From the NCBI GenBank assembly GCA_041674185.1, contig JBAYWE010000003.1, positions 896 through 64,895 of the forward strand: 64,000 nucleotides of DNA. Direction: 5' to 3'. Under the pieces are notes generated by a model, which made no database searches, had not been told where the DNA came from, and saw nothing but the letters and a program-made list of their open reading frames with translations. The stretch's first letter is position 1. Each line of letters begins with the position of its first letter. Of this stretch, positions 7,202 to 54,741 are shown in pieces. The DNA comes from Minisyncoccota bacterium (GTDB lineage: Bacteria > Patescibacteriota > Minisyncoccia > UBA6257 > JAGOQP01). A program made the translations under genes and the position numbers.

Positions 7202-10200
7202 TTATGCTTTCAACACATCAATATCCTCTTCCACCACCTCTTCTTCTTTCTTTTTAAAGAAGATCCAATAGATAAGGAATATAATAATGAGTAAGAGAAG
7301 CAAACTAAACCACCATGATCCGAAAAGTCCTTGGAACGCATCAAATATACTTGCCGTCAAAGTGCGTCCTGAGAGAGTTTCCGCGGTTAGATAAGAACTT
7401 ACCGATTGTGGACGATTCTTACTATCGGTGAAATTAAATACTGAGCTGAAAATAAGAATATCTCCTTTATTAACCCCTGTACTTACTTCACCCTGAATAG
7501 TCACTGAACCTTGATCACCTGACAATACAGTACCAAGATCATAGGTTACCTCGTTTACATTCTGTTCTTTAACACCTCGATCACTTGAAACAAGTTGTAT
7601 GTCGGTTTCGTCAGGAGCAATAATTTTTAAGAATGAATTTGTTAATGGATACGTACACCCATTACGATAGGTTAATGTATAGGTATACGCTTCTCCTGCG
7701 TTTATATTTTGAGGAGCTATACTAGGAACAACTATTAAACAAGAAGATCCTCCTGTTGTTGTATTGGTAAAACTCGTAGTATTTACCGTTGTAATAGTAT
7801 TACCCGTAAATGTTTGCCCTCCCGATTGTGTTTGAACAGCAAGAATATATCCATATACTGTTCCATAACTGTTTTGTGCAACAACTCGATAGAAATATGT
7901 TGTTCCTGGAGTAAGTCGTGTTAATGCATATGATGTTTGTGCATCATTTGTTCCATTTCCTATTTGCTGAGCTGTCGTACGTGATCCCAATCCTGCACTC
8001 GTACCATATTCAAACCATGCAGTTGTATTTGTTATACCATTAGGATTTACCGTTGCATTTAACAATGCAGAGTTCTGAGAAATAAAGGTAGGAGCCTTTG
8101 TTAATACAGTTGCTAATTTTCCAGATGCTTGAGTACCAAATGTATTAAAGGTAAGTATATTTCCATATGAAGTATTTACTTGATTCCGTGCCGCGGCGCG
8201 ATAGTAATATGTTTTCCCAGTTTGTAGTCCAGAAAGTTCTACACTAAAAGGAACAAAGTTTTGAGAATTTTGTATAGATTTCTCATTTGTCTTTGCATCC
8301 ATAGCATCCTTTGTAAGACCATACTCAAACCATGCATATCCTGCGTACCCATTGGTAAACATAGATCCATAAATGGTTGCGCCTGTAAGTGAGATTGCTG
8401 ATGCATTATCAGTGTTTACCAGTGGTCCTCCCGCACTACTTCCTCCACCTCCACCACCTCCGCCACCACCAGAACTTGTTGTAGTAAATGAAAGCACCGT
8501 TCCTTGTGAGCGTCCCCTGGTGTTTTCAGCAACGACACGGAAATAATATACTGTACCCGCACTCAATCCTGAAATATTCGCGGTTACATTTTGTGCTGTA
8601 GAAAGCGTCTGAGATGCTGTCTTTTGACCCAAAGAAGAATCGGCTCCATATTCAAACCAATAGGTACTCGTTAATCCATTTGGATGTATATATCCTGCAA
8701 GTGTTGCATTCGTTTGAGTAATATTAGTTGCATTCTGAGTAGTCACTGTTGGTGCTGAAATACCACCACTTACTGTTGTAATAAATGAAAGTACATTTCC
8801 ATACACACGTCCCTTACTGTTTTGAGAAGCAACACGGAAGTAATATGTCGTATTTGCGCTTAATCCTGAAATGTTTGTGTATATAGGATTTGTTTGTGAT
8901 CCAGATCCTCCATTCTGTGTTGCGCTTCGGCTTCCCAATGTTTGATCAGTACCATATTCAAACCAGTAGGTAGTGGTAAGACTTCCTGGATTCACTGATC
9001 CATTTAAACGAGCGCTTGTACTTGTAATAGTATCTGCAGCGATAGTCTGTGCAATAGGAGCTGTTGTTGTATCTCCTCCTCCCGTTGTTGTAGTAAATGA
9101 AAGCACCGTTCCTTGTGAGCGTCCCATAGTGTTTTCAGCAACGACACGGAAATAATATACTGTACCCGCACTCAATCCTGAAATATTCGCGGTTACATTT
9201 TGTGCTGCATTTATATTTTGTGATGTCGTTATTTGTCCCAATGATTGTGTGGTTCCATATTCAAACCAATAGGTACTCGTTAATCCATTTGGATGTATAT
9301 ATCCTGCAAGTGTTGCATTCGTTTGAGTAATATTAGTTGCATTCTGAGTAGTCACTGTTGGTTTTGAATTTCCCCCATTTCCATTCGTTGTTGAAAAATT
9401 TAATATAGATCCATATGAAGTTCCCTTACTATTTTGAGCTACAGCACGGAAATAGTATGTCGTATTTGCAACCAATCCTGAAATACTGCCTGATATTGCT
9501 TGTACTACTGATCCATTCGTACTTTGTGTTGCGCTTCGGCTTCCCAATGTTTGATCAGTACCATATTCAAACCAGTAGGTAGTGGTAAGACTTCCTGGAT
9601 TCACTGATCCATTTAAACGAGCGCTCGTACTTGTAATAGTATCTGCAGCGATAGTTTGTGCAATAGGAGCTGTTGTTGTATCTCCCCCTCCCGTTGTCGT
9701 AATAAAACTCATAACATTCCCATAAGTACGTCCTTTACTATTTTGAGCTACGGCACGGAAATAGTATGTCGTATTTGCGCTTAATCCTGAGATGCTCGTA
9801 GAAACATCATTTGTTTGTGATCCAGTCCCCGCACCTTGTACTGCTGTACGGCTCCCTAATGTTTGATCAGTACCATATTCAAACCAATAGGTCGTTGCAA
9901 GATTATTTGCATTAATTTGTCCATGGAGCTGAGCTCCTGAAATAGAAGTCGCACTTGCTGCTTGTGTTGAAACTGAGGGTTGTGCGGTGGTATCCCCATT
10001 TGCCCCGGTCGTCGTAAATGAAAGAATTGAACCAGTAGTTCTTCCTTTATTATTCTCTCCAACGACACGATAATAATAGGTGGTGTTTGCAGATAATTGA
10101 GATATTAAAGCACTTACTGACTGCTTTGAGGTAAGCGATTGCGTTAGTGATTGCGTTGCGGTTCTTTGTCCCAAGGAAGAAGTTGTTCCATATTCAAACC

Positions 10201-12301: not shown

Positions 12302-12545
12302 CTGACACCTCTTCTGTTTAGTTTTTGATTTATTTTTATAAAATTTTTCTCAATTTGCTTCCTTTAGTCTACCACAAGATAATAAAAATGTCAATTATAT
12401 ACTATTCCCCCATATACAAAAAGAGATACACAAAATGCACCTTTTTTGTACTCATACAGAAAAACTTTAACTCTGCGGGAGTTGAGGCCTGCCTGCCGGT
12501 AGGCAGGGAATCTTATATCATCTTCTGAGATAGTTTACATTTGAG

Positions 12546-13150: not shown

Positions 13151-13336
13151 TGTGCACGGGGAAGGATTTTCCCTCGCCTCTCGTCGCGTCGCCACGCTCC
13201 TCGGGTTAGGCACCGCCTCGCTGTGCTCATTGCTATTTGCACATGCTCCGGCGTTCAAATCCTTACGTTTCGCACGCAGGTGCGAAACTCCTCCAATCAT
13301 ATTATACACCCCCATTAAGGGAGATTATAATATATG
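13151..13336 (-). other. GC-rich structured element E1 immediately 3' of tRNA-Tyr, ending in a 19-nt direct repeat of the tRNA-Tyr 3' end
   Basis: tgtgcacggggaaggattt occurs at 13335-13353, where it covers the tRNA-Tyr T-arm and acceptor 3' end. It occurs again at 13151-13169. The ~165 nt between the copies are much more GC-rich than the surrounding DNA and contain hairpins (TTTCGCAC-CTGC-GTGCGAAA). The core is homologous to element E2 at 38138..38334 (shared GCGAGGnGGnGCCT...CGAG...GAGCG.GGCGA...AGGCGA blocks). The tRNA-proximal end, CATATATTATAATCTCCCTT, resembles that of E2. Confidence 0.55.
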
Positions 13337-13420
13337 TGCACGGGGAAGGATTTGAACCTTCGTAGCCCGTAGGGCGTCAGATTTACAGTCTGATGCGATT
13401 GACCGCTCCGCCACCCGTGC
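13337..13420 (-). tRNA. tRNA-Tyr (anticodon GTA, long variable arm)
   Basis: The reverse complement is GCACGGGTGGCGGAGCGGTCAATCGCATCAGACTGTAAATCTGACGCCCTACGGGCTACGAAGGTTCAAATCCTTCCCCGTGCA. The anticodon loop is CTGTAAA, the variable stem-loop is GCCC-TAC-GGGC, and the discriminator is A. Confidence 0.85.
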
Positions 13421-38066: not shown

Positions 38067-38137
38067 GGGCCCATAGTATAGCGGTAGAACGATTCCATGG
38101 CATGGAATAGGTCGGGGTTCGACTCCCCGTGGGTCCA
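38067..38137 (+). tRNA. tRNA-Ala (anticodon GGC)
   Basis: GGGCCCATAGTATAGCGGTAGAACGATTCCATGGCATGGAATAGGTCGGGGTTCGACTCCCCGTGGGTCCA. The G3:U70 Ala identity pair is present and the anticodon loop is ATGGCAT. Confidence 0.85.
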
Positions 38138-38334
38138 CATATATAATCCCTTTGTAGAATTTTTATATGTGAAAAAAAATTTCACAACTACTTATGAAAT
38201 GTCGGGGAGGCGAAGACCGCAGCGTTATGCATTCAGTAGAATGCATCGCGAGGGGCGGCCTGCGAGTTTGTTGAGCGACGGCGAAACAAAACTTGTAGGC
38301 GACTCCCCGTGGGTCCACATATATAATCCCTTTG
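38138..38334 (+). other. GC-rich structured element E2 immediately 3' of tRNA-Ala, ending in a 35-nt direct repeat of the tRNA-Ala 3' end plus downstream bases
   Basis: cgactccccgtgggtccacatatataatccctttg occurs at 38120-38154, where it covers the tRNA-Ala T-loop to the 3' end plus 17 downstream nt. It occurs again at 38300-38334. The body contains perfect hairpins (TGTGAAA-AAAA-TTTCACA; ATGCATTC-AGTA-GAATGCAT) and a GC-rich core homologous to E1. Its 5' CGGGGAG can pair with the CTCCCCG inside the terminal repeat. Confidence 0.55.
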
Positions 38335-38399
38335 GGGATTTTATGTGGAGAGACTTTCCAAATTCTATTATTTTTTGTATAGTATATTTATATATTTAT

Positions 38400-53644: not shown

Positions 53645-53715
53645 TAAAAATGTACAAAAATCACCCTTCTCTCCAAATTATGCATACATTAGAAGTATTC
53701 TGAAATCCCCCCCTA

Positions 53716-54578
53716 TTTACGATTCCCGACATCGTAAGATATAATAATAGAAACAAATAAATATGAGAAAAATATCTTTCTCCAATGACGGTATCTATCA
53801 TATTTTTAATAGAGGAGTCGATAAAAGAACTATATTTCTAGAAGACGGTGATTATTTTAGATTCATACATGATTTATATGAATTTAATGACGAATCACCA
53901 GCGGAGAATATTTATTACAAAACCTCCTCCTTACAATCTTACGATGTCGGGAATCGTAAGATACAAAAAAAGGTGCGAACCTTACTTGTTGATATTATTG
54001 CATTTTGTATAATGCCCAATCATTTTCATTTACTTGTAAAACAACGTGTAGAAAATGGCATTACATTGTTTATGAAAAAACTCGGAGGAGGATATGCAAA
54101 TTATTTTAATACAAAAAATGAACGATCAGGAACCTTGTTTCAAGGACGGTTTCAGGCAGTTCCTATTGATACAGATGAATATCTCACGTACATTCCATTT
54201 TATATTCACGCCAACCCCATAGAACTGTATGATCCAGGGTGTAAAGAATCTGGTTTTTCAAAAAACAAAAAAGATGTTTTACATTTCTTAGAATCTTATA
54301 GGTGGTCAAATTTTCCAGATTGTATAGGTAAGAAAAATTTTCCCTCGGTTACACAAAGAGATTTTATTCTGAATTATTTTGGCGGACCTCTTCAATATAA
54401 AAAATATATGCTGAATTGGATGGATCGATTTGCTTCTTCAAAAATTTCTGCAAATACAACTACAAAAATAGAAGTGTCGGACAGAGACATGCGAGATATC
54501 ACCCTAGACTAGAGACTAGACTCGAAACTACTAGACTAAAAGTTATATTTATGTTCTTACGATTCCGGGAATCGTAAG
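53716..54578 (+). mobile_element. IS200/RAYT-like HUH transposase unit with REP-like hairpins
   Basis: Three copies of the 23-bp imperfect palindrome CTTACGAT-N7-ATCGTAAG lie at 53716-53738 (upstream, inverted loop), 53938-53960 (inside the CDS) and 54556-54578 (downstream). They bracket the transposase gene 53763..54512. Confidence 0.5.
53763..54512 (+). CDS. IS200/IS605-family (Y1 HUH) transposase / REP-associated tyrosine transposase-like
   Basis: YHIFNRG near the N-terminus, the HUH motif MPNHFHLLV, and a catalytic Tyr region YIPFYIHANPI, matching the Y1 transposase (Transposase_17) pattern. A C-terminal extension of about 100 aa is present. Confidence 0.65.
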   Translation: MRKISFSNDGIYHIFNRGVDKRTIFLEDGDYFRFIHDLYEFNDESPAENIYYKTSSLQSYDVGNRKIQKKVRTLLVDIIAFCIMPNHFHLLVKQRVENGITLFMKKLGGGYANYFNTKNERSGTLFQGRFQAVPIDTDEYLTYIPFYIHANPIELYDPGCKESGFSKNKKDVLHFLESYRWSNFPDCIGKKNFPSVTQRDFILNYFGGPLQYKKYMLNWMDRFASSKISANTTTKIEVSDRDMRDITLD

Positions 54579-54741
54579 ATGGGTACGGGGGGAAGGGGGC
54601 GCAGAAAAGTTGTACACATTTTTTCATAGCGTATTACCCGTGAATACGGTATACTATCTGTATGTACTATAGTATATGTATAGATACTATTCATTTATAC
54701 ATTCACTGTACTATATATAATACACAGTTAGTACCACACGT

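Follow-up and report, generated by a model that had tools for sequence, protein, structure and literature searches.

A family of small folded non-coding elements bounded by copies of tRNA 3' ends in ultra-small bacteria of the candidate phyla radiation type

Here, we describe a family of small elements that lie directly behind tRNA genes, starting from 64,000 nucleotides of a Minisyncoccota bacterium (GTDB lineage Patescibacteriota; Minisyncoccia; UBA6257; JAGOQP01; GenBank assembly GCA_041674185.1, contig JBAYWE010000003.1, positions 896 to 64,895 of the forward strand), a stretch referred to below as the window. Two such elements are present in the window, E1 behind a tRNA-Ala(GGC) gene and E2 behind a tRNA-Tyr(GTA) gene on the opposite strand. 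E1 is one copy of a widespread family of folded non-coding elements of ~120 bases in ultra-small bacteria of the candidate phyla radiation (CPR) type. With moderate confidence, we favour the explanation that the members of this family are small, non-coding and non-autonomous insertion elements specific for tRNA genes.

The initial annotation of the window had drawn attention to a 35-nt direct repeat of the 3' end of tRNA-Ala, and this repeat is confirmed: CGACTCCCCGTGGGTCCACATATATAATCCCTTTG occurs exactly at 38120-38154 and at 38300-38334, with a start-to-start spacing of 180 nt. It begins at C56 of the T-loop, passes through the 3' strands of the T-stem and the acceptor stem, the discriminator and C74, and then runs into the trailer; the similarity reaches 43 nt at 93% identity, and 47 nt with 42 identical positions. 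The tRNA parts of the upstream and downstream copies are called tail1 and tail2. The repeats are separated by 161 nt only, which contain neither an open reading frame (ORF) nor a tyrosine or serine integrase gene. The same architecture had been proposed for an element associated with tRNA-Tyr, and it is indeed found there on the minus strand, with an exact 19-nt copy of the tail at a distance of 184 nt. Both tail repeats are real and far beyond chance. Among the 12 tRNA genes of the window, most of which encode C74 after the discriminator rather than a full CCA (tRNA-His ends in CCCA), only those for Ala and Tyr have a tail copy, the other ten being without one.

That E1 and E2 are homologous had been suggested from shared sequence blocks. 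Direct local alignment did not bear this out, the scores for the whole elements and for the cores being no higher than those of dinucleotide shuffles, but an independent covariance model did. This model (R2) was built from 16 elements of other metagenomes, none of them from the window, and its search of the 64-kb window returned exactly two significant matches, E1 (83.9 bits, E 1.5e-16) and E2, to which a search with the filters off added none. As the sole significant matches to a model built without either of them, E1 and E2 are homologous members of one family. With another covariance model, R1, the E1 scaffold scored 98.9 bits.

Many further copies were found in related metagenome contigs (designated below by L and a number). 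A metagenome scan with the 18-nt tRNA-Ala tail yielded 120 contigs, many of which have the same layout, and in ~2.1 Mb of related contigs ~24 of ~300 tRNAs show it. The host tRNAs cover nine amino-acid types, namely Ala, Tyr, Ser (three isoacceptors), Gly, Arg, Leu, Glu, Val and Pro. Read in the tRNA sense, a typical member consists of the intact tRNA, a hairpin that is often terminator-like, in many cases a stretch that looks like the acceptor 3' strand's complement with hairpin a (CUGC loop) after it, then a short antisense box, a scaffold of ~100 nt and the tail copy, which extends from T-loop position 56-60 to C74. In E1, a spacer hairpin (38169-38185) takes the place of hairpin a. The box is the reverse complement of the T-loop and the T-stem 3' strand of the same tRNA (GGGGAGTCGAA for Ala, AAGGATTTGAAC for Tyr and GAGAATCGAAC for Gly). 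Repeat periods are ~125-197 nt, except for a single one of 321 nt. As a rule, the repeat stops precisely at C74, the final tRNA nucleotide that the genes encode, as would be expected if an element-borne tail must restore the tRNA. All copies with the E1 type of scaffold (family A) sit directly after GGTT(C), and the flanking repeat could be read as an element-borne tail rather than as a duplication.

The family shares a fold in which box and tail pair to close a three-way junction. A pairing of CGGGGAG (38203-38209) with CTCCCCG (38303-38309) in E1 had been noticed at the outset; it is real, closes the minimum-free-energy fold of E1 (-55.3 kcal/mol, z = -4.4), is conserved as helix P1 and covaries with the identity of the tRNA. 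However, it does not form the T-arm/acceptor-like minihelix that had been envisaged: P1 consists of an antisense box paired with nucleotides of the T-loop and the T-stem 3' strand, and it closes a three-way junction. E2 alone folds like E1, again with P1 as the closing helix. Helix P2 has an internal loop of GGA opposite GA and carries hairpin b with the loop AGCA or AGUA, and P3 bears hairpin c with the tip GAGCGAC(U)GGCGA. The sequence blocks previously seen to be shared by E1 and E2 are genuine family motifs: GCGAGGnGGnGCC is the 3' strand of P2 as it continues into P3, and GAGCG..GGCGA forms the tip of hairpin c.

With ten members in a plain MAFFT alignment, RNAalifold recovered the three-way junction, with compensatory changes in 28 of 33 pairs. 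When 22 members were aligned to the model, 88.9% of the pair cells were standard, in comparison with 61% after shuffling and 35-40% with slid partners, and double changes occurred in 30 of 33 pairs; as this alignment was fitted to the model and is biased towards the structure, the RNAalifold/MAFFT result is the less biased support. G.U pairs exceed A.C pairs (29 vs 13 overall and 21 vs 7 excluding P1), which indicates that the folding strand is the tRNA-sense strand, RNA and single-stranded DNA fitting alike. In a sub-type of family A (L116, L194, L099, L144, L189 from 14498 onwards and L165 at 9027-9143), the closing helix uses the extreme tRNA 3' end and trailer (TGTGG ... CCACA) and not the T-arm, and tRNA end and trailer build a long near-perfect CUGC-loop hairpin immediately upstream of the scaffold. 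The features of both window elements are listed in Table 1.

Table 1. Positions of E1, E2 and their host tRNA genes in the window
Feature	Position	Strand	Evidence or remarks
tRNA-Ala(GGC), intact	38067-38138	+	ARAGORN; Rfam tRNA 56.8 bits
tail1 of E1			final 19 nt of tRNA-Ala, T-loop C56 to C74; part of repeat copy 1
Direct repeat copy 1 (tail1 and trailer)	38120-38166	+
Direct repeat copy 2 (tail2, 38300-38318, and trailer copy)	38300-38346	+
AT-rich spacer hairpin GTGAAA/TTTCAC	38169-38185	+	from sequence
E1 scaffold (family A) and tail2, three-way junction	38201-38317	+	covariance models, covariation
E1 antisense box CGGGGAGGCGAAG	38203-38215	+	5' strand of helix P1
E1 helix P1	38203-38212 with 38300-38309	+
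E1 helix P2	38217-38220 with 38255-38258	+
E1 hairpin b, loop AGUA	38227-38246	+
E1 P3 and hairpin c, tip GAGCGACGGCGA	38258-38300	+
Hairpin in copy-2 trailer, CCACATA..TATGTGG enclosing AATCCC/GGGATT, then TT	38315-38348	+	from sequence
tRNA-Tyr(GTA), intact; 3' end is tail1 of E2	13336-13420	-	ARAGORN; Rfam
E2	13151-13334	-	hairpin after tRNA, hairpin a, box, scaffold, tail2
E2 hairpin a, loop CUGC	13268-13287	-
E2 box AAGGATTTGAAC	13253-13264	-
E2 scaffold	13153-13267	-	R2 77.2 bits, E 4.4e-15
E2 tail2, exact 19-nt copy of the tRNA-Tyr tail	13151-13169	-	spacing 184 nt; starts at A57

The ends of the elements are matched to the neighbouring tRNA. The best box in the elements usually shows 0-3 mismatches in 13 positions against the reverse complement of the cognate T-arm (two in E1), whereas only 12 of 269 tRNAs without a tail copy reach three or fewer, their distribution peaking at 5-6 mismatches. 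The scaffolds themselves may be nearly the same on different hosts: the core of E1 shares 90% identity over 59 nt with that of L191 on tRNA-Ser(UGA), and for the E2 core the values are 82% over 107 nt with L143 on tRNA-Ser(CGA) and 93% over 55 nt with L004. Thus, near-identical scaffolds bear different boxes and tails on different tRNAs. Conversely, the ends of family B, which has an unrelated scaffold (..AGGGGTCGGGAAA..TTTCCCGTGGnGGAAG..), obey this rule too on tRNAs for Arg, Ala, Leu and Gly, and a third scaffold (L174 and L177) keeps it on tRNA-Ala. Since unrelated scaffolds obey one rule, the logic of antisense box and tail belongs to the process that creates or maintains the inserts and not to one RNA family. 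For both tRNAs with the rare T-loop nucleotide C55 (in L165 and L195), a matching G is found in the box, although this position is not covered by the repeat. This variation of box and tail with the tRNA was absent from the initial annotation, as were the patchy presence of the elements and the resemblance of the repeat to an integration-site duplication that spares the tRNA.

These matches could also be explained by small RNA genes, each linked to its tRNA, that are resident and do not move, encoding for example a tRNA-like or tRNA-antisense RNA whose ends mimic or pair with the tRNA for maturation by RNase P, RNase Z and the CCA-adding enzyme, or for action on the tRNA, the match to the neighbour being maintained by selection and local gene conversion. 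Such a gene would fit the conserved fold with its covariation and G.U bias, the complementarity of the box to the intact T-arm including positions outside the repeat, the acceptor-5'-like segments upstream of hairpin a (GGGCCCA in L174, GTGGACCCA in L123 and GCGAGGGGGTA in L143) and the promoter-like and terminator-like signals that flank E1. On the other hand, copies are present at only two of the 12 window tRNAs and are present or absent among close relatives, tandem and chimeric copies occur, three unrelated scaffolds are found at one tRNA type, scaffolds 82-93% identical are placed on different tRNAs, tail2 decays in older copies, and neither E1 nor E2 has a convincing acceptor 5' strand. 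We therefore consider a resident RNA gene unlikely.

Patchy presence is seen at the E1 locus. Over the tRNA-Arg/tRNA-Ala region, contig L185 shows 91% identity to the window, whose order it shares (tRNA-Arg(CCU), tRNA-Ala, a small ORF and tRNA-Ser(CGA)), with a gap of 40 nt between tRNA-Ala and the ORF and without E1. In L143, the tRNA-Ser(CGA) gene is 100% identical to that of the window and bears an E2-like element missing from both the window and L185, and there is no E1 behind its tRNA-Ala. L123 has a tandem pair after tRNA-Ala, with a decayed tail on the distal element, and L182 two different scaffolds in tandem after tRNA-Glu. Elements stand behind two adjacent Ser tRNAs in L163, the second element being chimeric, with a box for tRNA-Ser(UGA) and the tail of tRNA-Ala. 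The element of L004 is also chimeric, its box and tail matching different tRNA-His variants.

L004 (metagenome-assembled genome FK3.bin40) is the closest genome-level relative, with an alanine racemase 63% identical to that of the window. In the region 5363-9940 of L004, a family-A scaffold whose tail is like that of tRNA-His stands immediately upstream of alr, at the far end of an island of >10 kb. The island codes for a 265-aa RNase H protein as well as a type I restriction-modification system (HsdM/HsdS-like); ARAGORN found no tRNA in the 17.9-kb locus, nor is there one within 10 kb of the element. Relatives retrieved via the neighbouring alanine racemase showed no synteny at the tRNA locus. 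For E1 itself, an exact-protein look-up for near-identical contigs returned the source contig and one Logan contig, and no others. The latter (L445 from SRR6484325), an independent assembly of the same organism, ends inside tail2 of E1 (at about window position 38305), as would be expected of a repeat that confounds the assembler or of a site that varies within the population.

In a more conventional origin, the elements would be decayed remnants of integrase-borne islands or prophages, left as functionless attL/attR scars or in the manner of cis-mobilizable elements (CIMEs). A direct repeat from the T-loop to the tRNA end is reportedly the classic form of tRNA integration (Williams 2002, Nucleic Acids Res 30:866), a 2.5-kb island lies between two tRNA-Ala tails in L106, and the L004 scaffold has the position described above at the end of an island with a restriction-modification system. 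We nevertheless regard this origin as quite improbable. The elements are uniform in size, no copy contains an integrase fragment, L106, L107 and L136 harbour classical islands whose tail copy has no scaffold beside it, and compensatory conservation of structure together with a tRNA-specific antisense box is not a product of random decay.

Similarities to tRNA-integrating islands and prophages are evident in the repeat from the T-loop to the tRNA end (starting at C56 in E1 and A57 in E2 and ending at C74), the restored tRNA, serial tandem insertions and patchy presence; full tRNA-Ala and tRNA-Tyr genes, called by both ARAGORN and Rfam, stand intact at one junction. Unlike such islands, the elements are ~125-200 nt long, lack an integrase or any ORF, have a folded scaffold and an antisense box, and place one scaffold on at least nine tRNA types with matching ends. 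With CIMEs they share the non-autonomous nature, att-like flanking repeats and, presumably, an enzyme acting in trans, but here a structured core is conserved across hosts and tRNA targets. We know of no cognate autonomous element, although the island of L004 may offer a lead.

The tRNA-Ala(GGC) tail also bounds conventional inserts in L106 (tails 2566 nt apart), L101, L107 and L136, for example one of 2.5 kb with ORFs, and this tRNA is thus a general integration hot spot. These inserts have a common motif near the distal tail (..GTTGCCCAAGAA.. / ..CAACCGATCAAAATCGGTTG..) and no scaffold. A conserved hairpin-forming stretch, CTTCGNTCGCCGAAGCGANCTACGG, follows immediately after tail2 of the tRNA-Ser(CGA) elements in L143 and L182, which come from two metagenomes, and could be a further module or another small element. 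Behind tRNA-Trp, where a weaker third case had been suspected (12478-12520), the model gave no match even with the filters off; the region holds an unrelated 20-nt palindrome, CCTGCCTGCCGGTAGGCAGG (12488-12507), which recurs in related metagenome contigs. This GC-rich palindrome, CCTGCCTRCCGGYAGGCAGG, looks like a separate tiny repeat similar to repetitive extragenic palindromes (REPs) or to miniature inverted-repeat transposable elements. It recurs in related contigs, with eight matches in 0.78 Mb (sites besides that of the window are L128 at 1555, 2710 and 3820; L182 at 2374 and 2501; L202 at 2890; L161 at 157), and it often sits within displaced tRNA tails or scaffolds; the L161 copy is apparently within the D-loop region of a tRNA-Leu gene.

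A tiny gene-free insert with a conserved fold, an antisense copy of the target across the crossover and many tRNA hosts favours a non-autonomous element that acts by base pairing. In the mechanism that we propose for such tRNA-specific insertion elements, recombination would occur in the T-loop between positions 55 and 60. The element would bring its own segment from the T-loop to C74, regenerating an intact tRNA gene upstream (tail1), and the original tRNA 3' end would be displaced downstream as a direct repeat (tail2). The geometry is that of site-specific integration into a tRNA gene, where incoming DNA replaces whatever lies distal to the crossover and so restores the tRNA, as is established for islands and prophages. 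The strand of tRNA-sense polarity would fold by itself into the three-way junction closed by the box:tail helix, and this fold may be a recognition module through which a trans-acting enzyme is directed, by base pairing, to its tRNA target; either a recombinase or a transposase could fit.

The folded strand would most likely be RNA, which in E1 may be transcribed from a promoter-like site composed of the T-loop (as -35) and the trailer TATAAT. This TATAAT (38142-38147, in the copy-1 trailer) is 17 nt past the T-loop sequence TCGACT, together a 10/12 match to a sigma-70-like promoter (38119-38147). Three substitutions distinguish the repeat copies in such a way that the AATCCC/GGGATT hairpin is broken in copy 1 and intact after copy 2, and a putative transcript would thus start after tail1 and stop after tail2. 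Judged from its sequence, the copy-2 trailer hairpin could be the terminator of this transcript; a terminator scan made no call at 38315-38348.

Several observations weigh against the proposed mechanism. None of the copies inspected is linked to a recombinase, transposase or reverse transcriptase, and the only transposase-like gene of the window has no homologue in ~2 Mb of other contigs, element-bearing ones included. Many members have a terminator-like hairpin between tRNA and scaffold that leaves scant room for a promoter, and in many members other than E1 no obvious promoter is seen. The E1 repeat runs 28 nt beyond the tRNA, a match not expected of an element that arrives horizontally. The box fits the T-arm of the intact tRNA at least as well as it fits tail2 in every case, and old tail2 copies decay (L091, L141 and L182), which implies that the cis helix P1 may not be the functional pairing. 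The mechanism does not account for the re-setting of both box and tail on a new tRNA. Finally, all comparisons are with metagenome contigs, among which no exact empty site with identical flanks was found.

The strand-specific fold is also compatible with an element that moves as single-stranded DNA, be it an IS200/IS605-type miniature or one whose attachment site is folded as in CTX-phi or integron attC. In that case RNA would play no part, and an enzyme of the Y1/HUH or Xer/Int type would find its double-stranded tRNA target rebuilt by the box:tail duplex. An inverted copy, ~90 nt and a direct copy stand in this order at one end of the elements, a layout also found in the attP(+) site of CTX-phi. 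The elements are hairpin-rich and without ORFs, insertion is always directly after the universal GGTTC, and the same genome has a Y1 transposase gene. This gene (an IS200-like, HUH-type ORF at 53763-54512; 37.4 bits against a cut-off of 23) is the sole transposase-like gene in the window. However, its flanking hairpins (TTACGATTCCGGGAATCGTAA) are unrelated to the element scaffold, and the lack of homologues in other contigs noted above applies here as well. Moreover, the elements lack the R-box consensus of integrons, a circle of 150-180 nt would be very small, and the G.U tolerance fits RNA and single-stranded DNA equally. We judge a purely DNA-based element to be quite unlikely.

The Y1 region (53700-54600) has a REP-like arrangement of the kind associated with REP-associated tyrosine transposases. 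A 21-nt hairpin repeat (TTACGAT..GGAATCGTAA) is present there in three copies, at 53717, 53939 (within the Y1 ORF as called) and 54557, and the hairpin arms CGATTCC/GGAATCG resemble T-arm and box sequences of some tRNAs.

Like CTX-phi attP(+) and integron attC, the elements have inverted target-like arms around ~60-140 nt of variable structured sequence at one end of the insert; they differ in that the target is a tRNA gene instead of dif or attI, that conserved R/L boxes are lacking and that the 'cargo' is almost nil. An identity with integron attC was rejected, as (A/T)TCGAAC or TTTGAAC stands at the end of the box and the T-loop reads GTTCRAN, neither of which fits RYYYAAC ... GTTRRRY. Miniatures of IS200/IS605 (palindrome-associated transposable elements) and the omega-RNA of TnpB are likewise small, hairpin-rich and non-coding, with a scaffold followed by 16-20 nt of target-derived 3' sequence and, in the elements, possible insertion beside a short constant motif, GGTTC, which would equal a transposon-associated motif. 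In contrast to these, the elements carry a target copy (tail1) and an internal anti-guide, and no tnpA or tnpB is adjacent.

A target-complementary segment that spans the insertion point and changes with the target is further known from the bridge RNA (seekRNA) of IS110/IS1111 and from the guides of introns of groups I and II (internal guide sequence and exon-binding sites). The elements differ from both in having no recombinase, no intron of ribozyme size and a contiguous box of 10-14 nt instead of split guide loops. For the bridge RNA of IS110, no DEDD recombinase was found among the window ORFs scanned, and the three-way junction has a single contiguous box.

A more far-reaching possibility is raised here tentatively: the ~120-nt scaffolds, of at least two unrelated families, may be nucleic-acid-guided mobile elements or, in an alternative version, the first bacterial retroelement similar to short interspersed nuclear elements, with a tRNA-derived tail annealing to a nicked target. 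A programmable box, perhaps with the 3' tail, would then steer a trans-acting enzyme to the T-loop of any chosen tRNA gene, and insertion would take place there with the tRNA restored by the spare 3' end of the element. There is a substantial, though less than even, chance that the mechanism is new in kind, which would be the case if it is nucleic-acid-guided; otherwise it would be a variant of tRNA-gene integration.

Searches for known relatives or a partner enzyme gave little. Against Rfam 15, E1, E2 and six other element-bearing loci showed only weak chance matches by gathering and E-value thresholds. With no Rfam 15 family found, the ideas of a tmRNA, a ribozyme, a Y RNA or a T-box were dropped; GCGAGGGGCGG resembles pseudoknot 1 of the Escherichia coli tmRNA, but the helix topology differs. 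The strand order and core motifs of the junction do not fit a hammerhead, hepatitis delta virus or group I ribozyme, or a K-turn guide RNA. Core-motif scans of IMG/VR viral contigs, evaluated by covariance model and nhmmer, gave only chance GC-rich hits among the matches listed, and BLAST against phage and plasmid collections found no match to the elements. The RNase H gene beside the L004 copy recurs at no other copy. Full-text literature searches returned no description of this tRNA-tail element family, which is apparently undescribed. The group I introns reported in tRNA genes of Patescibacteria interrupt the anticodon loop at position 35/36 and are distinct from the T-loop elements (PMC13011429).

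Even on the most conservative reading, the elements are a clean marker for recombination at tRNA loci. If the proposed mechanism is correct, they would account for the recurrent GC-rich blocks and assembly breaks beside tRNA genes in CPR genomes and represent a structured RNA or DNA family absent from Rfam, and CPR bacteria would host a population of minute RNA-like parasites, or tools, for which tRNA genes serve as safe places to land, chosen through base pairing and not through protein specificity. They would also point to an enzyme that could be a compact, programmable and site-specific insertion system. If guided by nucleic acid, the elements would constitute a minimal, naturally retargetable and gene-sparing insertion system in genome-reduced bacteria.

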